From Desulfobacterales bacterium (GTDB taxonomy: Bacteria > Desulfobacterota > Desulfobacteria > Desulfobacterales > UBA11574), in contig JASFLX010000002.1 of the NCBI GenBank assembly GCA_050117895.1, positions 1 through 40,548 of the forward strand: a stretch of 40,548 bases of DNA. Direction: 5' to 3'. The notes under the pieces were generated by a model. It saw only the letters and a list, made by a program, of their open reading frames with translations. It ran no database searches and had not been told where the DNA came from. Position 1 is the first letter of the stretch. Each line of letters starts with the position of its first letter. The translations under genes were made by a program, and so were the position numbers. Of this stretch, positions 873 to 40,445 are shown one piece after another.

Positions 873-1309
873 AACCTACCTCCTTTGTTGAAATGTTTCT
901 TAAAAAATGCCCCAGAGGTAAGGCTATGATATCTTTTAGATATATTCTATATTTTACGGAAATTATGCTGTTGAGATACCGGTTGGCAAAAGGAAAATAT
1001 TCTTAAAGACAGAACCATGTGCTCCATTGCAGTAAAACGTAACAAAGGTTGGAGTCAACGATCTGTAACTGTAATTTTATTAATTCTGCCTCGGAGGTCT
1101 GTCGCCAAATCAGAAAAAGTTACTGAACTGTCTCGCTTAACTCTGTGTCCTTTTTTGGGGTAGGAACTCCTCAATTTATTAGCATCCCATTGTGGTTTAA
1201 TTTATTTTATTTAATAAAAGATAGTTATATGCTATGAAACTTAATATGAGTCCCAAGAACCAGAAATCTCAACTTAAATTAAGCCAATAAAAGAAAATAA
1301 GCAATAAAT

Positions 1310-2797
1310 ATGCTTAAAAAAATCTCTCCACTCAATAGGCTCATTATACTTCTACTGAGCGCATTGGTATTAACCGGCTTTAGAACGACTACTCATAAAG
1401 AAATGCGCACATTCTCTTCTATAAAGCAATTTTCACTTAAATCTATTACTCAAATGACGATAGAGACCATGCAGTTAATGGGCTACCAATTGAAAGACTG
1501 GAACGATAGCACGGGCTATGTGTATGGTTCCAGATCATTAGTAACAAAACGTAGGCGGTTTGCAGTCAACGTTATCACGGGTTACCAGGGGCAAAAATTT
1601 ATCCAGGCACAATGCTTTACGGATTCTGATCTTTTTGGAGTGGGAAACCGTAAAGAAGTTCAAGAATTTTTTCGGCTTTTTAATAAAATTGCAAATCGCT
1701 TGTCAAGAGAGGTGAGTAAAGAAAAATCTCTTGCAGTTAAACCATCAATTCCGCAAGCCGATAGTTCAACCTATAAACCAGCAGTGAAATCCGGCAAATC
1801 AGTTATAAATGGACAGTTATTTGTAGAAGCAGAACCGAAGGGCTTCCAGGTCAGGATTCTGAACATCAAGCCCAAATTCTCCCAAGGCATACGTCTTAAA
1901 CCCGGGAGATATCTTTTGGAAGTTTCGGCGTTCGGATACAATACATGGAAGGACTGGGTTGAACTCGCGGCCGGCGAGAAAAAGACTGTCAAGATCAGTC
2001 TTTCAGGTGAACATCCGATGTCGGCAAAGGATCTTCCGAAAATATGGCTTTTTTCCGTGGGTATCTCGGATTTCACGGATGAAAGTCTGGAATTGAGATA
2101 TGCCGCCGCCGATGCAAAGAACTTCTACAAGTTTTTCCGTTCTGCATCCGGAGCCATGCTTCCAAAAACACAAGCTGTATTGTTGATCGATGAGGCCGCT
2201 TCTAGGGCAAATGTTATACGATTACTGGTACGCTTTGTCAAACAGGCAAACGAAAATGACCTTATCGTTATTTTTTTCGCAACACACGGATTGCCTGACC
2301 CGGATACCGGGGAAATCAACTTCATCATGTATGACACCGCCATGGATAATCTCGTGGGCTCCGGTCTCTCACATAGCGACCTAGACCGGATTATTCAGCG
2401 TTCAAGAGCCAGTAAGGTGCTGTTCATCGTAGATGCCTGTCATTCAGGCGGATTGGGTGTCAACTCTTTATTGGCACGCAGAGGAATTAGAATTAGCGAG
2501 GTGAACCGCCTGATTTCAAAGCTCGCAGAAGCGACAAACGGAACTGCGGTGCTTTCCGCTTCAAGTTCCAATGAAATGAGCATGGAAGGAGAACGCTGGG
2601 GGGGAGGGGTTTTTACGTATTACATGATCGGCGGGTTGAGAGGACGGGCAGATGCAAACCAGGATCAGATTGTCACCTTGAGGGAGCTTTTTGATTATGT
2701 ATACAAGAAGGTTCCGGCGGCCACAGACGGGCAGCAGCACCCTGAGTTGAAAGGTCAGTTCAGCAATGATCTGCCTCTCGTTGAGGTAAATCCATGA
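1310..2797 (+). CDS. Caspase-family (peptidase C14) protein with N-terminal signal/anchor and central PEGA-like beta-sandwich
   Basis: N-terminal KK plus hydrophobic stretch LIILLLSALVLTG. PEGA-like segment GFQVRILNIKPKFSQGIRLKPGRYLLEVSAFGYNTWKDWVELAAGEKKTVKISL. Caspase p20 motifs: VGISDF...AAADAKNF, IVIFFATHG (His codon 2285-2287) and LFIVDACHSGG (Cys codon 2438-2440). Confidence 0.85.
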   Translation: MLKKISPLNRLIILLLSALVLTGFRTTTHKEMRTFSSIKQFSLKSITQMTIETMQLMGYQLKDWNDSTGYVYGSRSLVTKRRRFAVNVITGYQGQKFIQAQCFTDSDLFGVGNRKEVQEFFRLFNKIANRLSREVSKEKSLAVKPSIPQADSSTYKPAVKSGKSVINGQLFVEAEPKGFQVRILNIKPKFSQGIRLKPGRYLLEVSAFGYNTWKDWVELAAGEKKTVKISLSGEHPMSAKDLPKIWLFSVGISDFTDESLELRYAAADAKNFYKFFRSASGAMLPKTQAVLLIDEAASRANVIRLLVRFVKQANENDLIVIFFATHGLPDPDTGEINFIMYDTAMDNLVGSGLSHSDLDRIIQRSRASKVLFIVDACHSGGLGVNSLLARRGIRISEVNRLISKLAEATNGTAVLSASSSNEMSMEGERWGGGVFTYYMIGGLRGRADANQDQIVTLRELFDYVYKKVPAATDGQQHPELKGQFSNDLPLVEVNP

Positions 2798-3088
2798 CAC
2801 GTGTCCTGTCCTAAAAAGAAGGTACATTTCTTAAGTATCGTTGAGCACCAGCAATTTTTCTTGCACTTTTTTTAAAAGGTATTTCTGGAATAGGTCACGA
2901 GCGGATCTCATTTATTATCGAGTAGAAGGATCAAACCGAAATCATAAAAAGTTCAGATCGCTTGCCAGTCTAGCAAGCATTCAAAACAGCGATTGATATA
3001 CAGATATCCTATTTTTCTGGGGCCAGATCAATTAAATTCTATTTTTGACAATTGTCAAATCATCTCCGTCCACCGACATTTTAGAGTT

Positions 3089-3697
3089 TTAAAACTTTTT
3101 TAGTCTTTTGTAATCGATTGCCGAAGCATAATCGACCAAATCAGTTTCTTTGACCTCTTGCCCTTTTATAGTTACGAGGTACTGCTTCGCTACAACAATA
3201 TTTATTTCTCCATCTTTGCTTGATGGACGATACTTAATAACAGCCTTTTGTCTTTTTATTTTGGTTAACTTTCCTCCATCAGCTGACGCAAAAGCTGGGT
3301 TTGAGAACAGCATAAGCATAGATTGAAGGGCTGGAGAATCAGTGATTATTTCTATCGTAACAGAGCTCTGGTCTTTACGATACCTCCTCTGAGCTGAAAT
3401 TCCTCCACCGAAGTATCCTGCACCGGCAGCCTTAGATTTTATATCCTCTGCTGACCATCCGGTTAATGGTTCGGGTAAGAAAGCTTCCAAGTTGCCACCT
3501 CGTTTTTGGCGAATAAGTTGGGAAGCATAGTCGAGGCTATTAGCAGCTTCAACGAAATCACCTTCTTTATAATATTCAATTGCTTCTTCAATAGAATCAG
3601 TAATCTCATCAGCCCAAACTGTTCCAGAGATGAAAATTGACACGATTATAAATAAAGCTATTAACCCCCTTAAAGCAGTTTTATCCATTTTAAGCAT
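3089..3697 (-). CDS. Secreted protein of unknown function (202 aa)
   Basis: Strong SD (AAGGAGGA) 4 nt upstream of the ATG. Signal-peptide-like N-terminus LIALFIIVSIFISGTVWA/DE. I recognise no catalytic motif. Confidence 0.7.
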   Translation of the reverse strand: MLKMDKTALRGLIALFIIVSIFISGTVWADEITDSIEEAIEYYKEGDFVEAANSLDYASQLIRQKRGGNLEAFLPEPLTGWSAEDIKSKAAGAGYFGGGISAQRRYRKDQSSVTIEIITDSPALQSMLMLFSNPAFASADGGKLTKIKRQKAVIKYRPSSKDGEINIVVAKQYLVTIKGQEVKETDLVDYASAIDYKRLKKF

Positions 3698-4137
3698 CTC
3701 ATCCTCCTTATTAAGTAGTAAGTTTAACTGAAAAAGTATTAGGACCTATTCAAGATATCTTGCCATCACCTCAGGTTCAAACACCTCAATTTAAAGTGCA
3801 TATATCTTATTTCTTACGGAAATGCAATAAAAGCAAACCCCAGAAAAAGGATCTGCCCTCATTAAAAAAACGATATAACACAACTTTTTATAGAAATGAT
3901 ACGTGTGTTTTAATAGCAGATACATGTACTTGACACTTTTAAAAAATGTTCCTTGAAACTTATATTCTTAAGTAATTATGTTCAATAAACTGGAATTTTA
4001 AAAGTATTTGAACACATAATCATAACCAAAACCCCATGCGCAAAAACTGCTTTACAGACTTTTTGTTATAATATAATTATAAATAATAAGTTGATAAAAT
4101 TGTATAAATTACAGCTACTATTTCGGGGTATGAGATC

Positions 4138-4938
4138 ATGACAATCAACAGATTATTCAAGGTTTTTGCAGTTTTGTCACTGGCGATAACATCCGCTTTG
4201 CTCTTAACTCCATCCGGCTATGCTGCAGAAGGTTATTCACTACTAAAAGGGTTCTGGCAGTGCCAGGAGGATGGCGAGCGGACAACCCTTGAATTTCACT
4301 CAAAAAATCAATTGATCTATAACGGTCAACCCGCCAACTACCAATTGCTGCCCAATGCCTTCCGAGTTATAGAGGATTCCGGCCCCGCCAACTACTACTA
4401 CCAATACCTTGAGGGCACCCTCATCATCTTCTCTCCAGATGGTTCGGTGACATACTGTCAAAAGACCAAGAAACCCTCAGTTCAAGCTCAACAGCCAGCC
4501 AAACCTCAAACGACAGTGCAGGGCTGGCCACCGCCTTATCAGAGACCGCCTGGGAGAAGTACTTGGGAGGATTCCTCTCCGGAAAAACTGCTCTACAAGT
4601 TTGCAGGCCGTTGGGATTCTGCCACCAGCAATACTCTGCACAATATTTACTTGAAGCCTGACGGCAGTTTCGAGGACTCCTATGAGGCGGGATATAGTGG
4701 CCAATTTGTTGATCAAGGCGGTTTTCAGACAGGCAACTGGGGTGCTACCGGCAATGAGCAGACCGGCGGGCGTTGGACTATACAGGGCACGCTGCGCCAG
4801 GGTACCATAACCCTAATCCATGGGAACGGCAAACGTACAAACTATCGTTATCAGGTTCACTGCCGCGGCAGCGAATGCTACGGCAGCGAGTATTTTTTCA
4901 ATGGTAAACTCTATTCAGTGAAGTACATCTACCGATAA
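4138..4938 (+). CDS. Secreted Gly/Gln/Tyr/Trp-rich protein of unknown function (266 aa)
   Basis: Signal peptide FAVLSLAITSALLLTPSGYA/AE. Central Pro/Gln-rich linker (QAQQPAKPQTTVQGWPPPYQRPPG) separates two halves. The ORF is long and has no competing ORF. Confidence 0.7.
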   Translation: MTINRLFKVFAVLSLAITSALLLTPSGYAAEGYSLLKGFWQCQEDGERTTLEFHSKNQLIYNGQPANYQLLPNAFRVIEDSGPANYYYQYLEGTLIIFSPDGSVTYCQKTKKPSVQAQQPAKPQTTVQGWPPPYQRPPGRSTWEDSSPEKLLYKFAGRWDSATSNTLHNIYLKPDGSFEDSYEAGYSGQFVDQGGFQTGNWGATGNEQTGGRWTIQGTLRQGTITLIHGNGKRTNYRYQVHCRGSECYGSEYFFNGKLYSVKYIYR

Positions 4939-5095
4939 CTATGCTTCGGATGCAGGTATTTTGCCAATATTGCCGTCAATATCAAACTTTTTAAGATACA
5001 GATATCATGTATTTCCGGTGTCAGGTCAAGTCCGTCCTGTCACAATTATTCCTTATTTTCGGTTTCAATCCAAAGTTCTCATTGAGGCTGTTTAC

Positions 5096-5696
5096 CTAAT
5101 TTTCTTCGGACATTGGAATATAATCAAGCCGCTTTACCAAGTATGATTCGCCACTCTCGATAAGATCCATCATAATATTACCAGTTTTTTCCTTCAGAGC
5201 TTTATTTAAAAGATATTGGGTGAAAAATTTTCCCTTAATTCGAACGTTACCCTTACCGGGTTGTTGAGAATATTCAAGCAATTCAATCCTGTAGTTAAGT
5301 GACTCGACTTTTTCCATATTTCTGGGATATTCTGGTAATAGCTCATGAAAAGGCCTGTTGTTTTCAATAGCATCAGGAGTAAAAAAAATTGGCAAACTTG
5401 TCAAGATCCTTACTTTCATATGATTTGCAATAAAGAAATAAAAAGGATTTAAGGCGTTCTGTTTGAGCTACATTATGTTTTTCTTTGCTAACGGTTTTTA
5501 TTTTTTTATCATTATTTATCTCGATTTGCTTTTTTGGTGCCATTTTTATTTCGTCTTTCTGTCTGATTGATCCCCCGAATTCTACTCTATTTATCTTGGC
5601 ACCGTCTTCATAATTGGATTTGGGGTCGGGCCGAGCTAAGTATTTGAAAATTTGATAAAAGAGCTCTAAAAACGACCGTTTTTTGCTCTTAAACAT
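5096..5696 (-). pseudogene. Single gene split by a +1 frameshift in a T8 (plus-strand A8) homopolymer; intact product would be about 199 aa, unknown function
   Basis: ORFs 5373-5696 and 5096-5419 overlap. The minus strand reads ...AAG TTT GCC AAT TTT TTT TAC TCC TGA. Removing one T gives ...K F A N F F T P D A I E N..., which is exactly the downstream ORF frame. Confidence 0.6.
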
Positions 5697-6086
5697 ACTA
5701 TTTGGGGTAGAAAATAATAGATCTAAGGATTTTTTTTGAAATACTATTTAGTTCCCATCCAGAAATTGCCCTTTTCCGCAATTTGTGCGCCTGCTCTGCC
5801 TGTCGAAGCCGCGCGTAGATCCCGCTATCGGGGCTCCGTAGGTAGGAAATTATCATACTGGGATGAAATTTTTACTCTAACAATCGGCAATTTTTTCTTG
5901 ATATTTACACACAACATAGCGACATTGTTTTTGTTCTTACGCGCACTCGGCTGTCAGTATGAGGGCTCAGCGTGGAGAGCGAATAGCATCAGAAAATGGA
6001 TATTCACTAATAGATGAAAAAAGCTTATAATTTGAACGGCTCGGTAGTTCAGAAATCATCTTCAAAAAGAGAAGGAAGGAGAATCC

Positions 6087-6419
6087 ATGGCAAAAAAATA
6101 CACTCTGGAAGACGGAATGGACTTGTTAAAAGAGCAACTACCCAACGTGGCGAAAGCCTTCGGATTCCTGCGTGACGAAGCGACAAAAGACGGTGTATTG
6201 AGTGCTAGAACCAAGAGACTGATGATGGTAGCGGTTTCAGTGGCGCTGCGCTGCGAACCTTGCATCCGAACACATGTAAAGACGGTTGTTGAAATGGGGG
6301 TGTCCCGTACAGAAATCCTGGAAGCAACGGGAATCTCTATTCTGATGGCGGGAGGTCCTGCCATTGCGTATACTTCAACGGTTGTTTTGGAAGTCCTTGA
6401 TGAAATGAATGCTGTCTGA
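6087..6419 (+). CDS. Carboxymuconolactone decarboxylase / AhpD-like family protein (110 aa)
   Basis: Strong SD (AAGGAGAA). CxxC motif in the typical context ALRCEPCIRTH. Size is typical of small AhpD-like/CMD proteins. Confidence 0.85.
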   Translation: MAKKYTLEDGMDLLKEQLPNVAKAFGFLRDEATKDGVLSARTKRLMMVAVSVALRCEPCIRTHVKTVVEMGVSRTEILEATGISILMAGGPAIAYTSTVVLEVLDEMNAV

Positions 6420-6561
6420 ATAGTGTCAAAGCTTGATGTTCCCGTTAATTTTTATCCTCAACATCAACAAATTCTTGAGTGGTTGACGAGATAGAATGGA
6501 ATTGGTAATTTAGGAGCAGGGTTTACCATATAGGGTTTTACAATGTTTAGACGGAGGTAAA

Positions 6562-7020
6562 ATGAAAAAGGCTGTATTCTTAAATAACGGTTCGAAGAGG
6601 ATGGCAAGGGATTATATTCCAGCCACGATGTCTGCCGGTCCGGCCTTAAAGCATTATTTCATAGGGTTATCGATATGTCTTTTCGTTGTTATGGGATGCG
6701 CTGCCGGCGGCCAACATGTTCAAACATCTCCATATGACACAATGGTAAAATCTGTTCTTGTGGAGTCCGTATCTGAGTTGAATCCTCGTGTTGCCAGCAT
6801 TCAGCTATCGAGGCCCTCCATGTTTTTTGGGATTCTAAAAACCACGCCAATTAAATTCAACGGAAGGAAAGTTGGATCACTGGGGTCCGGGGGCTCCATG
6901 ATAAAATTCGTTACCCCCGGACATTTAAGGCTTCATTCTAATTATACTGTGCGACCCTTGGACTTAGAGGTCAAGGGCGTACATACTGATCAGAAAGACA
7001 CTCGTTATGGCGCCATCTGA
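6562..7020 (+). CDS. Lipoprotein with small beta-sandwich-like (PEGA/DUF2846-like) C-terminal region
   Basis: SD GGAGG lies 5 nt upstream. Hydrophobic stretch plus lipobox LSICLFVVMG-C. The segment PIKFNGRKVGSLGSGGSMIKFVTPGHLRL resembles the x-DG-x-x-G ... PG-x-H pattern of PEGA/DUF2846 sandwiches. The 3' end overlaps the next gene by 14 nt. Confidence 0.7.
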   Translation: MKKAVFLNNGSKRMARDYIPATMSAGPALKHYFIGLSICLFVVMGCAAGGQHVQTSPYDTMVKSVLVESVSELNPRVASIQLSRPSMFFGILKTTPIKFNGRKVGSLGSGGSMIKFVTPGHLRLHSNYTVRPLDLEVKGVHTDQKDTRYGAI

Positions 7021-7852
7021 ACCTTCTGCCAAAATCAGCCAAGGTACCATTCGTCCAATGCGCCCACATACACCCATGGCGAGCCAAGCTTCTCATAAGA
7101 CCAAGACAGAAACAGTGGGACTTGAATCTCCTCCTGACACGGGATTCGGGAGATATTATGCTCTTGTTATCGGAAACGACAATTACCGGCATTTGCCGAA
7201 ACTTCGAACTGCCCAAAACGATGCAAAGGTTGTTGCTCAGATACTTGGTCAGAATTACGGGTATCGTGTCCATTTGCTTTTAGATGCGGGACGGGCAGAT
7301 ATATTGATTGCCCTGGGTAAGCTCAGAGAAACTCTGACAGAGGCGGATAATCTCCTGATTTATTATGCAGGTCACGGATGGTTGGACCAAGAAGGAAACG
7401 AAGGCTACTGGCTTCCGATCGATGCCGTTCAGGACAACGAAGTGCAATGGGTTTCAAATGCGTCTATTACAACTGTTCTAAAAGCCATGCCAGCCAAACA
7501 TGTATTGATAGTGGCCGATAGTTGCTATTCCGGGAAGCTCGCAAGAGGAATTCATATTAAACGAAAAACCAGCAATTATTTTGCCCGAATGGCATCCAAA
7601 AGGGCCCGTTCCGTTATCGCTTCTGGAGGTTTGGAGCCCGTCATTGACAGTGGCGGCAAAGGAGGCCATTCAGTTTTTGCCACTGCTTTCATTGAAGCCC
7701 TTAAAGCAAACAAAAAGATAATAGACGGTACCGAGCTGTTTACCCAGATTCGTCGTCCGGTCATTTTAAATTCCGATCAGACTCCGGAATATGCGGATAT
7801 CCGAAAAGCCGGTCATGAGGGAGGAGATTTTTTGTTCGTTCGTTGGAAATAA
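7007..7852 (+). CDS. Caspase-family (peptidase C14) protein, no signal peptide, low-complexity N-terminal leader
   Basis: Motifs YALVIGNDNYRHLPKLRTAQNDAKVV, LLIYYAGHG (His codon 7373-7375) and VLIVADSCYSG (Cys codon 7523-7525). The start overlaps the stop of the upstream lipoprotein (ATGGCGCCATCTGA). Confidence 0.85.
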   Translation: MAPSEPSAKISQGTIRPMRPHTPMASQASHKTKTETVGLESPPDTGFGRYYALVIGNDNYRHLPKLRTAQNDAKVVAQILGQNYGYRVHLLLDAGRADILIALGKLRETLTEADNLLIYYAGHGWLDQEGNEGYWLPIDAVQDNEVQWVSNASITTVLKAMPAKHVLIVADSCYSGKLARGIHIKRKTSNYFARMASKRARSVIASGGLEPVIDSGGKGGHSVFATAFIEALKANKKIIDGTELFTQIRRPVILNSDQTPEYADIRKAGHEGGDFLFVRWK

Positions 7853-7975
7853 ATATTGAAATAGCGGACCGAAATAAATTTTTTAAGGTAAAATATTTCT
7901 TGGTAGCAATAACGTCCTGCGCCAAAATTCTATTTTTGAGATGGCTTCTAGTAGCGTTAGAAAAATGCGATCAAA

Positions 7976-8443
7976 ATGACACCGGCAATTAATCTAGCGA
8001 AAAGGAAGAAAATTACTCATAAAGTACATAAATACAATCACGACCCATCCAACGAATCTTATGGTATTGAGGCTGCTGAAAAGATGGGTGTGCCTGAAGC
8101 GAGAGTATTCAAAACTTTAGTTGTAAGTCTCGACAATAAAAAACTTGTTGTTGGTGTAATTCCTGTCTCATCTATGTTAAGTATGAAGCATATGGCAACG
8201 GCAACGGGTGCGAAAAAAGCCGCTATGGCTGACAAGTCGGATGTGGAACGCTCAACAGGTTATGTTTTGGGCGGTGTGAGTCCGCTGGGCCAAAAGAAGA
8301 GCCTGAAAACAGTCATCGATGCTTCGGCAAATGATTTTTCTACGATTTTTGTTAGTGCGGGCCGCAGGGGGCTGCAAATAGAATTGAGCCCTACTGATTT
8401 AAGCAACTTAACTAGTGGGGTCTTTTCTAAAATATGTCAGTAG
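7976..8443 (+). CDS. ybaK: Cys-tRNA(Pro)/Cys-tRNA(Cys) deacylase YbaK-type trans-editing protein
   Basis: 155 aa. N-terminal TPAINLAKRKKITHKVHKYNHDP...YGIEAAEKMGVPEARVFKTLVV and C-terminal GYVLGGVSPLG...IFVSAGRRGLQIEL match the YbaK/EbsC pattern as I recall it. Confidence 0.8.
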   Translation: MTPAINLAKRKKITHKVHKYNHDPSNESYGIEAAEKMGVPEARVFKTLVVSLDNKKLVVGVIPVSSMLSMKHMATATGAKKAAMADKSDVERSTGYVLGGVSPLGQKKSLKTVIDASANDFSTIFVSAGRRGLQIELSPTDLSNLTSGVFSKICQ

Positions 8444-8510
8444 CCCAACTTCTTACAAAGCGCGAAACCCGACGGCTTGACCGCCGGTTCGCTCAGCGTT
8501 ATGGGTGTAA

Positions 8511-9101
8511 ATGTTTAGCTACAAACTTGACATTTTGAACCGTGGCCGTATCCATAAGTACTGTGTCATTAAAAACGCAAAGTCCATGAGTTACGCTGAC
8601 GCATTGGACTTGTGGCAATACAATGAATCTTTTCGATCATTTTTCATTTCACTTTTGGCTGACGCTCCTTTTCCCGCTTATCGCTGGGAGACCCCGCCGG
8701 TCATCATCAAAACCATGAAGCGGGAGTTCGAATTCGTTCTCCTTGACAGTCCATCACTTGTCCGACCCCCGGATACCAATGCATTCGCAAGTTATTTTAT
8801 CACCGCCGAATCAGATACCGGAATCGTTGTCTTCGAGAATCTTGGCAAAGACGCCATGCTTGTGGCTCCTTGTCCGCAGGGGGATGATTCTGCATACGCC
8901 CATATCGCGGCATTCGTAAGAAACGGGCCGGAATCTCAGAATCATGCGTTGTGGCAGATCATCAGCCAAACCATGCAACAAAGAATCACGAATCAGCCCA
9001 TTTGGTTGAACACCGAAGGTTCCGGCGTCTCATGGCTACATGTCAGGCTGGATCGTCGGCCCAAATATTATGGATTCAGTCCGTACAAAGAGTTCGCATA
9101 G
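8511..9101 (+). CDS. Conserved hypothetical protein (196 aa), family not identified
   Basis: Clean ORF with conserved-looking blocks (YRWETPPV, FEFVLLDSP, LVAPCP, WLHVRLDRRPKYY). I can assign no function from the sequence. Confidence 0.6.
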   Translation: MFSYKLDILNRGRIHKYCVIKNAKSMSYADALDLWQYNESFRSFFISLLADAPFPAYRWETPPVIIKTMKREFEFVLLDSPSLVRPPDTNAFASYFITAESDTGIVVFENLGKDAMLVAPCPQGDDSAYAHIAAFVRNGPESQNHALWQIISQTMQQRITNQPIWLNTEGSGVSWLHVRLDRRPKYYGFSPYKEFA

Positions 9102-9256
9102 CCGGCGGCTGCGGGATATGGGGGACCATGTGATAGTTGGGGATTAAACTTTTTGACAATTACGCGATTCTTATTCTAATAAAATCAATATGAGCAGATC
9201 ATGGCGAATTGCGTATGAAGCTGCACTATCCACTTCGTGATCCCGCACAATGATAA

Positions 9257-12200
9257 ATGAAAAATCGTACAAGAGGAAGATGCGCCATGAAATTCAAGAA
9301 CTATATTTATTCAATCGTGATTGTGCTGGTGGCATGGTTTCCCTGCCACGGAGCCGAAGCACCGAAACTCGTGGTCGGGACCGGTAATCCCGGTGGCGTG
9401 AGATCTGTGGCCTACTCACCGGATGGGCGTTTTGCCGTGTCAGGGAGCACCGCCTCGCCGGTGCTGAAATTGTGGGAAATCAGCACTGGCCGGGAAATTC
9501 GCACCTTTAAATCACAATCTTCCGGTCCTGGCGGAATTTATTCCGTGGCTTTTTCGCCGGATGGTCGCTCTATACTCAGCGGGGGCGACTTCCTGGAAAT
9601 GTGGGACATAACAACCGGCAGCAGAATCCGCACCTTTTGCAAAAACAACTGCGAGATGTACAGAATTATGTCCGTGGCCTTTTCCGGGGATGGACAATAT
9701 GTTCTTTCCGGAGCATGGTTTAATACCCTCTATTTATGGAATGCAGAAACTGGCGAGTTCATTCGCGCATTTTCCCACGCTGATCCCGAGAGTTCAAAAG
9801 CTCATTCCGTAAACATCAATTCCGTTGCCTTGTCTTCAGACGGACGATTTGCTGTTTCCGGCGGCGATGATGCCACGATAAAACTGTGGGATGTGGAAAC
9901 AGGAAAACAGCTGCGAACATTGACCGGTCATTCAAAAAGAGTCACCACAGTGGCTTTGTCTCCGGATGACCGATTTCTCCTCTCCGGCGGTAAAAAGAAG
10001 ATTAAGTTATGGGAAGTTGCCACAGGAAAATTAATCCGGACCTTTGGCGGTCTTTTTGCTTCTCAAAATTATGTGGTCACGCTGCAATTTTCTCCTGACG
10101 GCCAATGGGCTCTGTCCACCAACAATAACGGCGAAATGATCTATTGGGATGTTTCCGCCGGTAAAGCGTTGCATGTTTTTAATAAAGGGGAGGAAAAGAA
10201 GAAAGTTGCGGCGTGTGCTATTTTTTCCCCTGACGGAAGATTTGCCCTGCAAGGCCACAAGGGGGTCATGAAACTTTGGGACCTTACCCATTATCGACTG
10301 GTAAAGGAGATGAAAGGACATGCCGACCCCATCCGCGCCTTGACCTTTGCGCCGAAAGACAACATGGTCCTTACCGCGACCAACTACACATTCAAATATT
10401 GGAACTTTCAGACCGGCAGGGAAATCCGATCCTTTCAAGGAGAGGGTTCCGGCCCTGTTTTTATTACCCCGGATGGCAAAAGCCTGTTTTCAGCCACCAG
10501 ACGCCAGACTGCTGTATTACGGGACGGAGCAACCGGCAGGATTCTAAAAGAATTCGATAAAATCTCAGCATATAAGCCGGGTGTCGCCCTTTCTCCGAAT
10601 GGCAGATACGGCCTGTGGTTTCGGGATCGGGAAGCTTTTCTGTGGGACCTTCGGTCAGGAAAAAAGATACATACGCTAAAAGGCCATGATGATCTGGTAA
10701 CCCGGGTGGTCTTTTCGCCGGACAGCGGTTTTGCACTGACCGGCGGCGAGACCGGTACGCTCAACTTATGGGAGGTATCCAGCGGTCGTCATCTCCGCAC
10801 CTTTCTCACCAAAGACCAGGGACCGACCGGCACGGTATTGGCACTGGCCTTTTCACCTGAAGGACGGTATGTTCTATCCGGGACCCTGGATGCAAAAGTC
10901 AGGCTCTGGGAGGTCAACACCGGCAAACTGGTTCGGGTAATGGAAGGAAAAACAGAGTGGTTGGGTGATATTGCCTATTCGCCGGACGGAACCCGGGCCC
11001 TTGCCGGGGGGTCTGGCATGACTATCAAAATGTGGGATTGTGAAACGGGCGGTATTCTTGCCACATTCACGGGCCACTCCAGCGGCGTGTATACCCTGAT
11101 CTTTTCTGCTGACGGCCGCTACGCTCTTTCCGGTGGTAGGGACGGTGTGATAAAACTCTACGATATCAAGAGGAAAAAAGAGCTTGCCAGTAGGGTGCAT
11201 ATTGATGAAAAGGATTGGGTTGTTTATACCCCGGACGGCCGTTTTGACGGCTCACCAGAGGGAATTCGCCATGTCCATTTCGTTCAGGGTCTTGAGACAT
11301 ATCCCCTTGAGGCTTTTTATGAAAAATTCTACACGCCCAATCTCTGGGTCCGCATCTTCGATGAAACGCCATTCCCGGCAACTGAGGTTCACATTGCCCG
11401 GGAAATAACCGCACCACCACGAGTAGAAATTATTTCGCCAAGGTCAGGGACGGTTATGGACTCGGAAAGAGCATCTCTCGAGGTTGCCATAGAAGATCAG
11501 GGAGGTGGAATCGATGAAATCCGCCTCTACCAGAACGGCAAACTGGTGTCGGACTTAACCCGCGGTATACGGATCAAGGAAACGACTGGGCACCAAACCA
11601 CCCATCGCTTCGATATTCTTCTTATTTCCGGTAAGAACGAATTCAAAGTCGTTGCCCTTAACACAAACAGGACCGAATCCAAACCGGCGGTTGTCACTGT
11701 GGCTTTCAAGCGGCGTTCTACTTCTTCCGCTGCCAGTTTATATATCCTTGCCATTGGTATTAACAAATATAAAAACGCTGTCTACGATCTCAACTTCGGG
11801 CGGCCCGACGCGGAGGCATTTACCAGAGCCCTTGAAAACCAGGGTCGCGCTATTTTTGCACAGATCGTCAAGCGGGAAGTCTATGATGAGAAGGCCATAA
11901 AACCGGTCATTGAACAGGAAATAAAACATATCATTGATACGGCCGGGCCGGAAGACGTCTTGGCTTTCTTTTATGCCGGCCATGGTGTGATGAGTTTGGA
12001 CAATGAGGAGAAAGGCTCGGATTTTTATTTGGTTACACACGATGTGACCCAGCTATACGGGAAAAGGGAATTGCTTGAGAGCAAAGGCATCTCGGCGCGT
12101 CAACTCAAGGAATGGCTGAAAAAGATCCCGGCCCAGAAACAGGTGATCATTTTAGACGCCTGTCAAGCCGGAGGAGCGGTGGAAACCTTCGCCTTAAGGG

Positions 12201-12529
12201 GTGCGGCCGAACAGAAGGCCATTGCACAACTGGCAAGGAGTACGGGTACCGTTGTCCTTGCATCCAGCGGATCGGAACAGTATGCCTCCGAGTTGCCGGA
12301 ACTGGGGCACGGCCTCTTTACCTACGCGTTTCTGCAAGCCATTGCGGGTCATGCAGACGGCGGTAAACCGCCGGATGGCAAAATCACGATCAAGGAAATC
12401 GAGGCCTATATCAATGACCGGGTTCCCGAACTGACTCAACGGTTTCGCGGCTCGGCCCAGTATCCCAACAGCTACACCATAGGACATGATTTTCCCTTGG
12501 CAATGAACTTAAAGGATGCTGGTAACTAG
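9257..12529 (+). CDS. Exported WD40-repeat (14 blades) - Ig-like spacer - caspase (peptidase C14) multidomain protein
   Basis: The likely true start is the second Met at 9287, with AGGAAG SD 7 nt upstream. Signal peptide IVIVLVAWFPCHGA/EA. Fourteen repeats end in [LIM]x[LMY]W[DEN]-x-x-[ST]G-x-x-[ILV]-[RH]-[TA]-[FL]. An Ig-like segment spans about residues 720-830. Caspase motifs: YILAIGINKY, LAFFYAGHG (His codon 11981-11983) and VIILDACQAGG (Cys codon 12161-12163). Confidence 0.9.
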   Translation: MKNRTRGRCAMKFKNYIYSIVIVLVAWFPCHGAEAPKLVVGTGNPGGVRSVAYSPDGRFAVSGSTASPVLKLWEISTGREIRTFKSQSSGPGGIYSVAFSPDGRSILSGGDFLEMWDITTGSRIRTFCKNNCEMYRIMSVAFSGDGQYVLSGAWFNTLYLWNAETGEFIRAFSHADPESSKAHSVNINSVALSSDGRFAVSGGDDATIKLWDVETGKQLRTLTGHSKRVTTVALSPDDRFLLSGGKKKIKLWEVATGKLIRTFGGLFASQNYVVTLQFSPDGQWALSTNNNGEMIYWDVSAGKALHVFNKGEEKKKVAACAIFSPDGRFALQGHKGVMKLWDLTHYRLVKEMKGHADPIRALTFAPKDNMVLTATNYTFKYWNFQTGREIRSFQGEGSGPVFITPDGKSLFSATRRQTAVLRDGATGRILKEFDKISAYKPGVALSPNGRYGLWFRDREAFLWDLRSGKKIHTLKGHDDLVTRVVFSPDSGFALTGGETGTLNLWEVSSGRHLRTFLTKDQGPTGTVLALAFSPEGRYVLSGTLDAKVRLWEVNTGKLVRVMEGKTEWLGDIAYSPDGTRALAGGSGMTIKMWDCETGGILATFTGHSSGVYTLIFSADGRYALSGGRDGVIKLYDIKRKKELASRVHIDEKDWVVYTPDGRFDGSPEGIRHVHFVQGLETYPLEAFYEKFYTPNLWVRIFDETPFPATEVHIAREITAPPRVEIISPRSGTVMDSERASLEVAIEDQGGGIDEIRLYQNGKLVSDLTRGIRIKETTGHQTTHRFDILLISGKNEFKVVALNTNRTESKPAVVTVAFKRRSTSSAASLYILAIGINKYKNAVYDLNFGRPDAEAFTRALENQGRAIFAQIVKREVYDEKAIKPVIEQEIKHIIDTAGPEDVLAFFYAGHGVMSLDNEEKGSDFYLVTHDVTQLYGKRELLESKGISARQLKEWLKKIPAQKQVIILDACQAGGAVETFALRGAAEQKAIAQLARSTGTVVLASSGSEQYASELPELGHGLFTYAFLQAIAGHADGGKPPDGKITIKEIEAYINDRVPELTQRFRGSAQYPNSYTIGHDFPLAMNLKDAGN

Positions 12530-28032: not shown

Positions 28033-29394
28033 ATGAAAACCATCGGTAAATACAAAATACGGGGACTGCTGGGCAGAGGCGGTATGGGCAAGGTCTATAA
28101 AGTGGAACTGCCGGTTATCCGTAAAATTGCCGCCTTAAAACTGCTTTCCCCCAATCCCCATCTGGTTCAACTGATGGGTGATAAGGCTATCCGGAATCTT
28201 TTTATTTCCGAAGCCGTTACCATGTCAAATCTGAGACATTCCCATATCGTAAAAATCTGGAATTTCGATGAAACAGAGGACGGAAAACTTTTTTATGTCA
28301 TGGATTATTATTTTAATAATCTCGGAATCATGATCGGCGAATCTTATATAACCGAAGCATCCTCCCGAGTGATTAAGTTAGATAAAGCCATTAAATACAC
28401 CCGACAAATTCTTTTGGGGCTGGCCTGTCTTCACCATTTCGGCATCGTACACCGGGATATTAAACCCTATAATATATTGGTAACGGATTTGGATACCATA
28501 AAAATTTGCGATTTTGGATTGTCCAAGCTCAGAGGAGAGGATTTTAAAGGACCCGAAAATCTCAAGGTGGGGTCTCCCTGGTATGCCGCGCCCGAACAAG
28601 AAGCCAACCCCGATAAAGCGGATCGTCGTTCGGATATTTATTCCGTGGGAATTATGCTTTATCGAATGCTCACGGGTGAGCTTCCCACGAAAAATTATGA
28701 AAAACCGAGTCAAATCAATGCTGATATAGACCCCACATGGGATGCTTTTATTGCCAAAGCCATTGCCGCAGAGCATCAAAACAGATTTGGTGATGCCAAC
28801 GAAATGTTAAAAGAACTCGATATCCTTGAAAAGGCTTGGGAAGAAAAAAAAGAAAAAATCTGCAAAATCGCCCCGGAATCGACGGTTGCAGAAAATTTCC
28901 CCTGTCATTCGGTGACGCTCAGGAGCCATGCCATCAAAGTCAATCCACAACATGGCAGAACCGTATTTTCCACAAACCAACTATGGCAACCCTCTGGTTA
29001 TATTAACAATGATTTTCAAATTCTTTCCAACGGCATGGTTATGGATAACGCCACACGTCTTATTTGGCAGCAATCCGGATCGGAATATCCCCTGACATGG
29101 CCACAAGCTCATGAGTATATCGAGGAATTGAACCAGAAACATGTTGGAGGATATCATCACTGGCGGCTTCCCACAACTGAGGAACTGATGTCTTTGCTTA
29201 CCCCAACCCCTCACGGCGAAGATTTTTGCATGGAACCGGTGTTTGACCCCAAACAAAAATGGTTATGGAGTTGTGACAGACGATCGTATATGGCGGCGTG
29301 GTATATCAGCGCAGATATGGGGTTCGTCTCGTGGCAGGATTTCAGCGCCTATTATTATGTGAGAGGTGTATGTAATGATAATTTGGAATCATGA
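28033..29394 (+). CDS. Ser/Thr protein kinase with C-terminal DUF1566 (Lcl C-terminal-like) domain
   Basis: Hanks motifs: G-loop GRGGMGKVY, AALKLL (Lys), HRDIKPYNIL, DFG and WYAAPE. The C-terminal region carries HWRLPTTEELMSL, typical of DUF1566. No TM segment separates the domains. Confidence 0.85.
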   Translation: MKTIGKYKIRGLLGRGGMGKVYKVELPVIRKIAALKLLSPNPHLVQLMGDKAIRNLFISEAVTMSNLRHSHIVKIWNFDETEDGKLFYVMDYYFNNLGIMIGESYITEASSRVIKLDKAIKYTRQILLGLACLHHFGIVHRDIKPYNILVTDLDTIKICDFGLSKLRGEDFKGPENLKVGSPWYAAPEQEANPDKADRRSDIYSVGIMLYRMLTGELPTKNYEKPSQINADIDPTWDAFIAKAIAAEHQNRFGDANEMLKELDILEKAWEEKKEKICKIAPESTVAENFPCHSVTLRSHAIKVNPQHGRTVFSTNQLWQPSGYINNDFQILSNGMVMDNATRLIWQQSGSEYPLTWPQAHEYIEELNQKHVGGYHHWRLPTTEELMSLLTPTPHGEDFCMEPVFDPKQKWLWSCDRRSYMAAWYISADMGFVSWQDFSAYYYVRGVCNDNLES

Positions 29395-38660: not shown

Positions 38661-40445
38661 TCATCGTATATTCGAAAACTTTGAAATATGAGGAATCCCT
38701 TTAAATTTTTTTTCATTGTACAGTGCTATTTTTGTTGTGGATCCAACAACACCGTCAACATGTATTCCGTATTTTTTCTGAACATTTTTGACTGCCTGCC
38801 GGGTATTCTCATCGTAAAACGGATTAATTTCAACCGAGTTGAATCCAATATCCCGTAGCAGCAGCTTCAGTGTTATTATGGAAACTTTTGGAGAATCCAG
38901 CGGAATGGTACCTGCCAGAGAGAGGAAATTTTTCCATGGAATGTATGCCACGCCGGACCAATATGATTTTAAATCATTCGGTTCCAGTTCTATTGAGACA
39001 TCCTTTTTCCCTCCTCTGAGAGCAATTTTTTCTTCATCTATTCCATTCAGCGTAAGATATACCGGAGGAAGATCTCCAGGGAGATGGAACTCTAAAATGG
39101 CCGGCAGATTTAATTTTTTTACCGCGTTAAAACTACCTTCAATGCGACGGATTAAAAGACCGTTTTGATCAGAAGCAAGGTGGAAAAAAGCCTGATCATC
39201 ACTGATACCGTTAAGATACCGTCCAATCTCAGATTGAGTACCCCACAAATCCATGGCAACCTTAAGGGCCGCGTTTCTTGAGTAAAACCGGTTCAATTTT
39301 TTAAGTAAAACCACCAGATCAGAGACAGACTCTTTAACGATTTTCGGTTTCTTTAATGCAGGCGCTTTAGCCGGCTCCTTATCAGGAATCTTAACCGGTG
39401 CTTTAACCGACTTTGAATCTGGTAAAGGTTTGGGGGAAGGAGATGTTTTTAAATACTTTGATCGGCTTAAGTGGTTTGATCTGGAAGTATCACCCCCGTT
39501 GCTTTCCAGTGAACTTAATTTCGCATGATCGTTAAAGAGTTCGGAGCGGAAAACCAATACCACGATAATGCCTGTACACAACAGAGCGAAAAATAGACCT
39601 GTTTTTTTCCATTTTTGAAGGCGACGGCGTTTCATGTCACCCCTAACACCCAGCTCGCGGATGGCAGCCATGGCTATCTTTCCGGATATTATCTCTTGAT
39701 TAAGAACGAATGCATTCAGAAGTGCCCGGTCACAGACAATATTGATTAATCGAGGGATCCCTCTTGAGTATTGATAAATAGACCGATAGGCGGCGGCGTC
39801 AAATTGAATTTCGGTCTTTAGGGAAGCGATATTGATACGGTGTTGAATGTATGCTTGAACTTCTTTATAACTCAAGGGAGCAAGCTGACATCTTAAAGTG
39901 ATCCTCTGGTCCAGCTGCCTGAGTTCATGGGAATCGAGTTTTTCTCCCAGTTCGGGTTGACCCACAAGGATAATCTGAATAAGCTTGTCTTTGGCGGTCT
40001 CTAAATTTGACAACAATCTCAACTGTTCCAGAACTTCTTTGGTCAAATTCTGGGCCTCATCGATGATAAGGATAACATTTTTTCCTTCGGATTTTTTCGC
40101 AATGAGAAAAGAATTCAGCCGGTCGATCAGATCTTTGATGTTGTCCGTATCCGATTCAATTCCAAATTCGTCAATGATGGCTCTGAGAAGTTGTATGGCA
40201 TTTAAACTGGGATTAAAGATGTAAGCAGCTTTTGTGTTATGATCCAGATTTTCGAGAAATGCTCGGCAGATTGTGGTCTTACCGGTTCCTACTTCCCCGG
40301 TGATTTCCACAAAACCGTCACCTTGAATCACTGCATAGGTCAGATGTGCAAGGACCTCTTCATGGCTTTTGCTCAAAAAGAGATAGGCAGGGTTCGGAAC
40401 GAGCTTAAACGGCCTTTCCCTGAAACTGAAAAAGTTTTTGTACAT
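38661..40445 (-). CDS. ExeA/GspA-like AAA ATPase with TM segment and C-terminal peptidoglycan-binding domain
   Basis: Walker A GEVGTGKTT and Walker B VILIIDEAQNL. TM GLFFALLCTGIIVVLVF. C-terminal PG_binding_1-like TRQAVKNVQKKYGIHVDGVVGSTTKIAL. Confidence 0.85.
   Translation of the reverse strand: MYKNFFSFRERPFKLVPNPAYLFLSKSHEEVLAHLTYAVIQGDGFVEITGEVGTGKTTICRAFLENLDHNTKAAYIFNPSLNAIQLLRAIIDEFGIESDTDNIKDLIDRLNSFLIAKKSEGKNVILIIDEAQNLTKEVLEQLRLLSNLETAKDKLIQIILVGQPELGEKLDSHELRQLDQRITLRCQLAPLSYKEVQAYIQHRINIASLKTEIQFDAAAYRSIYQYSRGIPRLINIVCDRALLNAFVLNQEIISGKIAMAAIRELGVRGDMKRRRLQKWKKTGLFFALLCTGIIVVLVFRSELFNDHAKLSSLESNGGDTSRSNHLSRSKYLKTSPSPKPLPDSKSVKAPVKIPDKEPAKAPALKKPKIVKESVSDLVVLLKKLNRFYSRNAALKVAMDLWGTQSEIGRYLNGISDDQAFFHLASDQNGLLIRRIEGSFNAVKKLNLPAILEFHLPGDLPPVYLTLNGIDEEKIALRGGKKDVSIELEPNDLKSYWSGVAYIPWKNFLSLAGTIPLDSPKVSIITLKLLLRDIGFNSVEINPFYDENTRQAVKNVQKKYGIHVDGVVGSTTKIALYNEKKFKGIPHISKFSNIR

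Follow-up and report, generated by a model that had tools for sequence, protein, structure and literature searches.

Prokaryotic metacaspases and orthocaspases, peptidases of family C14, can be fused to accessory domains (Asplund-Samuelsson et al. 2012, PMC3501461; review PMC5756287). WD40 is the commonest of these domains, found in 10.9% of the sequences, and N-terminal transmembrane (TM) helices that are likely signal peptides are also frequent; extracellular localisation has been noted, and possible surface or "fratricidal" roles have been proposed. Deltaproteobacteria are rich in metacaspase paralogues, and operons with up to three metacaspases are known, as in Desulfococcus oleovorans, which itself belongs to the Desulfobacterales (PMC3501461). 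Another described arrangement, EACC1-caspase, is a two-gene membrane-associated conflict system consisting of a 5' gene for the single-TM protein EACC1 and a gene encoding an N-terminal caspase domain with variable C-terminal domains (PMC7159879). The DNA considered here, a stretch of 40,548 nucleotides from an uncultured Desulfobacterales bacterium (contig JASFLX010000002.1; hereafter the window), carries three genes for C14 proteins, called caspases 1, 2 and 3 below.

These three open reading frames (ORFs) lie within the first 12.5 kb of the window, all on the + strand and inside 11.2 kb (ORF list and Pfam), a density far above chance given about 0.4-4 metacaspases per 1000 proteins (PMC3501461). 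The pairwise identity of their C14 domains is only about 25%; they therefore represent three old subfamilies and not recent duplicates, and a recent tandem duplication was rejected on this ground. The three genes are probably independent, anciently diverged paralogues encoding exported C14 proteins, gathered in a rearrangement-prone accessory stretch of Desulfobacterales DNA. Rather than forming one new coordinated system, they appear to have been acquired separately and to be of a kind described before; they are best read as members of the known class of exported bacterial caspase homologues, which is biochemically uncharacterised. A preliminary description of this DNA had suggested that this may be a module of an undescribed kind, a view that is not supported: exported metacaspases, WD40 fusions and three-metacaspase operons were already reported in 2012 (PMC3501461).

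Against the Pfam profile PF00656 (Peptidase_C14), whose gathering cutoff is 21.4 bits, caspases 1, 2 and 3 score 61.2, 84.9 and 60.3 bits, respectively (E-values in Table 1; the C14 and Big_7 domains of caspase 3 were scored on its C-terminal 440 aa). The His/Cys dyads lie exactly at the codons given in the preliminary description: 2285 (CAC) and 2438 (TGT) in caspase 1, with the motifs FFATHG / VDACHSGG; 7373 (CAC) and 7523 (TGC) in caspase 2, with YYAGHG / ADSCYSG; 11981 (CAT) and 12161 (TGT) in caspase 3, with FYAGHG / LDACQAGG. Both residues share alignment columns across the three proteins and are kept in 60/61 members of the caspase 1 subfamily and in 120/120 members of each of the caspase 2 and caspase 3 subfamilies. 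An Asp two positions before the Cys (Cys-2) hardly varies, if at all, within any of the three subfamilies. We take it to correspond to Asp462 of MALT1, an acidic residue of the S1 pocket, and it hints at an endopeptidase activity that would cut after Arg or Lys.

The fold of the catalytic domain leads to the same assignment. AlphaFold models of caspase 1 (pLDDT, the model's per-residue confidence, about 85-95 in the C14 domain) and of P0004, an intact orthologue of caspase 2, have confident C14 domains, and Foldseek matches both to the caspase/hemoglobinase alpha/beta fold of 3BIJ, MALT1, metacaspases and the classical caspases 3 and 8 (E = 1e-12 to 1e-6). For caspase 1, the matches are to 3BIJ (GSU0716; 9e-12) and MALT1 (1e-10), and for P0004 to MALT1 (1e-12) and also to metacaspases. 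At the sequence level, caspase 1 aligns with AtMC4 over both catalytic motifs and caspase 2 with MALT1 over the His motif; caspase 2 also matches 3BIJ weakly (E = 8e-4). A sequence search of the PDB with the C-terminus of caspase 3 returned no match, so its C14 assignment rests on Pfam and on the family alignment.

The three proteins appear to follow a common design, in which an N-terminal export signal, either a Sec signal/anchor or a lipobox, precedes a variable binding or anchoring module and a conserved C-terminal C14 domain. Export signals were found in caspase 1, in the N-terminal fragment of caspase 2 and in caspase 3 (hydrophobicity and lipobox patterns), and an extracytoplasmic location can reasonably be inferred for all three. 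The envelope-directed role suggested earlier is reasonable given predicted export and intact dyads. By the same patterns, a signal peptide or a lipobox is present in 59/65 members of the caspase 1 family and in 77/120 members of the caspase 2 family, 60/120 of the latter being lipoproteins; many members of these two families without an export signal are truncated gene calls.

Caspase 1, with the catalytic residues His326 and Cys377, has an N-terminal hydrophobic segment (score 3.0) that could act as a signal or an anchor. The Foldseek search also matched the modules in front of its protease domain to the N-domain of BamC (1e-4) and to a carboxypeptidase regulatory domain (7e-4). The PEGA-like sandwich that had been proposed behind the signal/anchor is thus partly borne out: the signal is there and the PEGA/CarboxypepD_reg likeness falls under the Pfam cutoff, but the fold match at 7e-4 backs a transthyretin/PEGA-like sandwich. 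From about aa 150 on, but not before, caspase 1 and P0122/P0123 are 82% identical; these nearest relatives share only the PEGA-like and C14 part, and they have a different N-terminal module, of lipoprotein type. The N-terminal module therefore seems to have been swapped in this lineage, whose members occupy unrelated neighbourhoods. In two loci from other organisms, caspase-1-like genes are consistently followed by a convergent gene for a 365-aa DUF4384 protein (L013 11638-12735; L016 3961-5058), which in L013 also gives a weak FlgO match and has a caspase-2-family gene adjoining. This DUF4384 protein, absent from the window, may be a conserved partner of that caspase-1-like subfamily.

Caspase 2 had been described as a caspase with a separately encoded, translationally coupled lipoprotein. 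Comparison with relatives points to another history, that of one gene cut by a 41-bp deletion. The closest homologues are 85-92% identical across the whole 281 aa of the 3' fragment, and they are single ORFs of 430-443 aa, in which a lipobox is followed by a beta domain, a linker and the C14 domain. Five or more close relatives keep the gene whole, and the 5' fragment lines up with the first 140 aa of the intact orthologues P0002, P0004, P0005, P0008 and P0010. It carries the lipobox VMGC at residues 43-46, judged against the consensus [LVI][ASTVI][GAS]C; an L-x-G-C motif is conserved in the family alignment (A2). Relative to L006 and L007, two related loci presented below, the 41 bp are missing at the junction between 6977 and 6978, with AAGGG microhomology on both sides; because 41 cannot be divided by three, the deletion puts the rest of the gene out of frame. 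Both fragments are thus halves of one ancestral lipoprotein-caspase gene. In the model of P0004, which has an eight-strand beta domain at aa 78-161, the deletion takes out about aa 139-153, that is most of the last two strands. The split allele was seen without any difference in 12 contigs, which come from several samples, and it is present in the conspecific contigs L019 and L020 too; the deletion allele is therefore real. No N-terminal hydrophobic segment or other export signal of its own was detected in the 281-aa catalytic fragment. The caspase 2 family is large (more than 3,000 matches); its members share an unusually conserved C14 domain, at about 60% identity, and have a hypervariable N-terminus, and nothing in Pfam or NCBIfam matches the N-terminal beta domain. 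In an unrelated metagenome, a gene of this family (L051 1789-2985) is likewise split into two adjacent open frames, so disruption or decay recurs in the family.

Caspase 3 agrees with what had been proposed for it, i.e., 14 WD40 blades, an Ig-like domain and a signal peptide. Its 14 WD40 signatures have a spacing of about 42 aa and would be enough for two seven-bladed propellers; its Big_7 Ig-like domain scores 26 bits (cutoff 24.1, E = 1.5e-5), and its catalytic residues are His909 and Cys969. The N-terminus is hydrophobic, with a typical signal peptide if translation starts at the probable Met11. The architecture of WD40, Big_7 and C-terminal C14 is found in hundreds of proteins from many phyla, among them Bacteroidota, Ignavibacteriales, Planctomycetota, Acidobacteriota, Verrucomicrobiota and other groups. 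The N-terminal signals of these homologues are uninformative, most matches being contig-truncated fragments.

None of the relatives examined has kept the same trio. L006, a locus from a Desulfobacterales metagenome-assembled genome with about 89-92% nucleotide identity to the window, is syntenic on both sides: an intact caspase 2 is followed by DUF6940 and, at a greater distance, by the Oxidored_FMN gene. L006 is devoid of YbaK, and caspase 3 and GDT1 are replaced by two unrelated envelope-type genes, one with a lipobox, whose products (497 aa and 216 aa) match nothing in Pfam or NCBIfam. With the loci L007 and L021-L024 (82-88% nucleotide identity), the window has nothing but the caspase 2 gene in common. 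Similarity begins about 100-135 nt upstream of this gene and stops at its 3' end or at most about 75 nt beyond, and its neighbours in those loci are an IS110 transposase, a DNA methylase, a NERD protein or a different WD40-caspase. Caspase 2 orthologues thus occupy at least four unrelated contexts. A contig scan for orthologous loci, anchored on DUF6940, found one distant locus from Aliifodinibius, without caspases.

The tyrosine recombinase reported at the left edge of the window is confirmed by the Pfam Phage_integrase profile. Its best NCBIfam match is XerA-like (121 bits vs a cutoff of 220), and it lies under every NCBIfam cutoff; the integron integrase model gives 39 bits vs a cutoff of 265. 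The nearby segment with caspase 1 and the 202-aa gene (Table 1) varies between strains: the conspecific L020 (about 99% nucleotide identity) joins window position 1034 directly to 3913. The segment is flanked by an imperfect direct repeat of about 20 nt with the core GCAG(A)TA, and its left edge lies about 160 nt upstream of the start of the recombinase gene, which is divergent from it; the predicted junction of a circular form would be ...AATAGCAGATA joined to AAACGTAAC.... Several assemblies break at about 840-1090 of the window. The difference is either an insertion in the strain of the window or a deletion in L020, and the empty site of the latter could equally be a microhomology-mediated deletion, one presence/absence event having been seen. 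The divergent tyrosine recombinase gene next to a strain-variable segment with short repeats recalls integrons, from which the locus differs by its short Xer-like recombinase and by the lack of attC-like sites and of a cassette array; an integron was rejected because the integrase is of the wrong type and attC sites are missing.

Other differences between conspecific strains were observed in the same region. At window position 5614, 657 nt are lost that are present in L020 (1803-2461); they encode the 5' part of the disrupted gene at 5096-5696 and a divergent ORF for a 117-aa WD40-repeat fragment, possibly debris of a further WD40 (or WD40-caspase) gene. L019 has a 257-nt insertion (2165-2422) at about window position 8429, between YbaK and DUF6940. 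This insertion contains a long hairpin (GGAGGCTTTCAT...ATGAAAGCCTCC) and looks like a miniature inverted-repeat transposable element or a repetitive extragenic palindrome. The region is therefore a hotspot of several small, independent indels. L064, L078 and L090 each have homologous recombinase sequence (41-62% identity) adjoining a caspase-2-family gene; all these homologues are decayed, some being truncated or fragmentary and others broken up by a serine-recombinase element. These three loci and the window suggest that genes for exported caspases move as cargo in association with recombinases.

Several repeats were found in this part of the window. A 39-nt direct repeat, 77% identical, is present as two copies (2993-3031 and 4991-5029) and is not dispersed; its core GATACAGATATC occurs in the window only at these two sites, where 0.12 would be expected by chance. 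The two copies lie in the two convergent intergenic regions that bracket the genes of the 202-aa and 266-aa secreted proteins. In L008, an inverted repeat of about 135 nt (about 80% identity) links 633-736 to 8180-8283, the latter being window 3754-3857; its arms, without Rfam match, enclose the recombinase, caspase 1 and the 202-aa gene. As these arms lie just upstream of two inward-facing sets of secreted-protein genes, the repeat was set aside as element termini; it probably reflects duplication of a promoter or leader, a role in inversion or regulation being the alternative. Finally, a poly-C tract at about 19-28, past the recombinase stop codon, has 10 C in the window vs 7 C in L008, and the window and several contigs end near it.

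Some observations weigh against the three genes being independent. Among 66 non-redundant metagenome loci of the caspase 2 family (298 kb of flank), 8 have a second C14 gene, and these 298 kb hold about 10 extra C14 genes, about one per 30 kb, mostly immediately adjacent; C14 genes cluster moderately in general, in agreement with the survey of 2012 (PMC3501461). Furthermore, a small lipoprotein caspase recurs in unrelated loci beside a large protein made of repeats, an Ig-like domain and C14, the scaffold being HEAT in L054, L061 and L062 and WD40 in L024/L007. Given this proximity and this recurring pair, some functional cooperation is possible. On the same side, export was judged solely by hydrophobicity and lipobox patterns. 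The caspases could then form a cooperating extracytoplasmic proteolytic module, either a cascade of the initiator/executioner kind or an envelope-directed conflict or cell-fate system, with the small lipoprotein and the large repeat-scaffold caspases acting mutually or on a common target. Caspase 2, YbaK, DUF6940 and caspase 3 all run in one direction, 67-185 nt apart, which would suit such a module, as would the multi-metacaspase operons known in Deltaproteobacteria (PMC3501461). However, a conspecific strain does without caspase 1, this population has a broken caspase 2, unrelated genes such as CMD and YbaK stand between the caspases, and only 4/17 of the caspase-2-family loci of at least 7 kb have a second C14 gene. 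Apart from DUF6940, in the syntenic L006, and the recombinase, none of the non-caspase neighbours recurs beside caspases in 578 kb of caspase-adjacent DNA from other organisms. The coherent three-gene module of the preliminary description is not supported on these grounds, together with the unconserved trio, the C14 identity of about 25% and the interspersed CMD, YbaK and DUF6940; cooperation in the broader sense is unlikely. It is far less likely still that the split caspase 2 is functional, whether as a lipoprotein with a coupled, now cytoplasmic caspase or through rescue by programmed frameshifting. The allele is fixed in the sampled population, its catalytic domain is intact, and its downstream ORF begins at an in-frame ATG with a 14-nt overlap with the upstream stop region, but all the close relatives encode a single ORF, the lesion between the AAGGG microhomologies removes most of two beta strands, the catalytic fragment has no export signal in a family that is overwhelmingly of lipoproteins, and the split member in L051 indicates recurrent decay.

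The independent-paralogue reading also has to be set against the proposal of an integrative island. That the whole 1-12.5 kb would be one island mobilised by the recombinase is very unlikely. The intact recombinase at the left edge, the adjacent 2.9-kb caspase 1 segment that varies among conspecifics between short direct repeats, the decayed homologous recombinases beside caspase-2-family genes in three other loci, and the IS110 transposase, DNA methylase or NERD protein adjoining caspase 2 orthologues in relatives are all in line with it. But the recombinase of the window is seen in a single genomic context, L006, L019 and L020 show several independent small indels, and the left flank in L008 consists of more secreted-protein genes and not of mobility genes. 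Furthermore, no tRNA gene was found in the window or L008 (nor any Rfam family at gathering thresholds), the search for att sites bracketing the 12.5 kb gave only short or irrelevant repeat pairs, no clear compositional break marks the block, and the DNA around the recombinase-caspase pairs of L064, L078 and L090 shows no similarity beyond the recombinase coding sequence and no shared att DNA. The mobile-island idea is partly supported for the caspase 1 segment, with its empty site in L020 and its repeats, and not supported for the 12.5-kb block, in which at least three independent indels are seen.

According to the preliminary description, most of the genes in between have products that are secreted and lack recognisable domains, which is an overstatement. 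Only two of the six have signal peptides (the 202-aa and 266-aa proteins), whereas CMD, YbaK and DUF6940 are recognisable families without export signals, YbaK being a Cys-tRNA(Pro) deacylase over its NCBIfam equivalog cutoff, and the sixth is a frameshifted remnant. The latter is a second disrupted gene of the block; the conspecific L020 reads through the T8 site and its copy has a longer 5' end. The 202-aa protein has no Pfam, NCBIfam or PADLOC match, and the 266-aa protein, a 458-aa protein of L008 and the repaired 199-aa ORF have no Pfam or NCBIfam match. Two genes lie between caspases 2 and 3, and caspase 1 is set apart from both by genes on both strands; a scan for sigma-70 and terminator patterns gave no usable operon boundaries, terminators being at chance level.

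As had been noted, the known partners of bacterial caspase-like effectors are missing nearby: Pfam revealed no gasdermin, CRISPR-Cas/TPR-CHAT or STAND (signal transduction ATPases with numerous domains) domain in the ORFs scanned from 1 to 16 kb, and PADLOC only generic caspase-domain similarity with no defence-system partner. A caspase-FGE (formylglycine-generating enzyme) system diversified by a diversity-generating retroelement was rejected, the window being without reverse transcriptase or FGE-sulfatase domain. The AAA_22/AAA_16 ATPase near the right end, the sole AAA_22/nSTAND1-like ATPase found, was set aside as a caspase partner because it is 26 kb distant. The small AAA_21 ATPase and the kinase listed in Table 1 stand among housekeeping genes (pyruvate kinase, MetK, AhcY, PanC, Dus).

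Table 1. Features of the window and related loci; positions are those of the window unless a locus is named.
Feature	Position	Strand	Basis or remark
Caspase 1, 495 aa	1310-2797	+	Pfam C14 E = 1.6e-16
Caspase 1 layout: signal/anchor, BamC-N-like helix-grip, PEGA/CarboxypepD_reg-like beta-sandwich, C14	aa 29-138 (BamC-N-like), aa 168-231 (sandwich), aa 245-492 (C14)	+	model, Foldseek
Caspase 2 5' fragment: lipoprotein signal, truncated beta domain, out-of-frame tail	6562-7020	+	
Caspase 2 deletion junction, 41 bp	6977-6978	+	DNA alignment vs L006, L007
Caspase 2 3' fragment, 281 aa: linker and C14, His123, Cys173	7007-7852	+	Pfam C14 E = 9.1e-24
Caspase 3, 1090 aa, probable start 9287	9257-12529	+	Pfam WD40/beta-propeller, Big_7, C14 (C14 E = 2.9e-16)
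Caspase 3 layout: WD40, Big_7, C14	about 9374-11206, about 11417-11569, about 11747-12472	+	Pfam, repeat signatures
Xer-like tyrosine recombinase, 278 aa, intact, R...HxxR...Y residues	36-872	-	Phage_integrase E = 1.6e-18, SAM-like N-domain
Strain-variable 2,878-bp segment with caspase 1 and 202-aa gene	1035-3912		absent from L020
Recombinase homologues	L064 297-878; L078 10919-11008 and 14362-15165; L090 6053-6418		unrelated metagenomic loci
202-aa signal-peptide protein, part of variable segment	3089-3697	-	N-terminal hydrophobic segment
Disrupted gene of about 199 aa, two overlapping 107-aa ORFs	5096-5696	-	+1 frameshift in T8 run 5381-5388 (minus-strand reading)
Small AAA_21/AriA-PtuA-like ATPase, 253 aa	23645-24406	+	among housekeeping genes
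Ser/Thr protein kinase fused to Lcl_C domain	28033-29394	+	among housekeeping genes
594-aa AAA_22/AAA_16 ATPase (weakly nSTAND1-like) with C-terminal PG_binding_1	38661-40445	-	26 kb from the caspases

Compared with the catalogued prokaryotic metacaspases, the proteins of the window are alike in their p20-type C14 domain with a His/Cys dyad, in the WD40 fusion and in their predicted N-terminal export signals. They differ from the multi-metacaspase operons in that the trio does not look like one operon, genes on both strands being interspersed. Furthermore, the best-known cyanobacterial caspase-WD40 proteins have an N-terminal caspase and C-terminal WD40 repeats, whereas C14 lies C-terminal to the propellers here; one gene of the window is split, and none of the three subfamilies has been studied biochemically. 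GSU0716 from Geobacter sulfurreducens, a caspase-like protein solved by structural genomics and the best structural match of the caspase 1 C14 domain, belongs to the same broad bacterial group, but it is a single domain of about 285 aa with no described function and 17-19% identity.

The likeness to MALT1, AtMC4, AtMC9 and Yca1 concerns the fold and the YYAGHG and D-x-C motifs, the Asp at Cys-2 being found in the Arg-specific MALT1 too. The Ig-like domain beside the protease domain of caspase 3 recalls the caspase-Ig3 of MALT1, although it precedes the protease here, and identity to the eukaryotic proteases is 13-21%. MALT1 and the metacaspases are cytoplasmic proteases of eukaryotic signalling and cell death, whereas the proteins of the window are predicted to be exported. 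With the EACC1-caspase systems (Kaur et al. 2020), they share a constant caspase domain combined with highly variable partner domains near the membrane, and NF047832 (caspase_w_EACC1) is the sole NCBIfam match for caspases 1, 2 and 3, at 99, 77 and 85 bits vs a cutoff of 140; their caspase domains are, unlike those of EACC1 systems, C-terminal. The ORF lists showed nothing resembling EACC1 upstream, no search aimed at EACC1 having been run.

For three independent exported paralogues, a working scheme can be proposed. Each caspase would be exported to the periplasm or the outer membrane, where its N-terminal module would tether it or select a substrate or partner and the His/Cys dyad would cut after Arg or Lys. 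The variable module is a BamC-like domain with a PEGA-like sandwich in caspase 1, a small beta domain with a disordered linker in caspase 2, and a double seven-bladed WD40 propeller with an Ig-like domain in caspase 3. Their genes would not form one coordinated system: that of caspase 1 is housed in the strain-variable 2.9-kb segment adjoining the Xer-like recombinase, that of caspase 2 is a gene-sized unit with differing contexts in relatives, in which the 41-bp deletion here parts the export signal and beta domain from the catalytic domain, and that of caspase 3 fills a slot taken by other envelope-protein genes in a close relative.

A bolder view would make exported C14 proteases a diversifying, horizontally shuffled arsenal of the Desulfobacterota, carried as gene-sized cassettes with the aid of a dedicated subfamily of Xer-like recombinases and often working in pairs, as NTPase-independent cascades, in the periplasm or at the surface; it is distinctly improbable. 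If it were true, pairs of a lipoprotein caspase and a WD40 or HEAT scaffold caspase would serve kin discrimination or defence against predators or phages, and the window would be a snapshot of a cassette hotspot, with one member freshly gained or lost, one decaying and one intact. If the independent-paralogue reading is true, caspases 1-3 are three further uncharacterised members of a large catalogued class, and the value of the locus is mainly corrective: a deletion within a single gene created the "coupled lipoprotein", and the clustered genes make up a mosaic and not a system.

For specialists, the large caspase 2 family, with its conserved C14 domain (about 60%) and hypervariable lipoprotein N-terminus, could be useful. 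The exported caspase genes behave as accessory, strain-variable cargo, caspase 1 being present or absent among strains of one species. Two small new leads arise, the subfamily of Xer-like recombinases recurring beside exported caspases and the pairing of a small with a large caspase. The role of extracytoplasmic bacterial caspases has been in question since at least 2012, and the large family, the variable cargo and the recurring recombinase give concrete handles on it.

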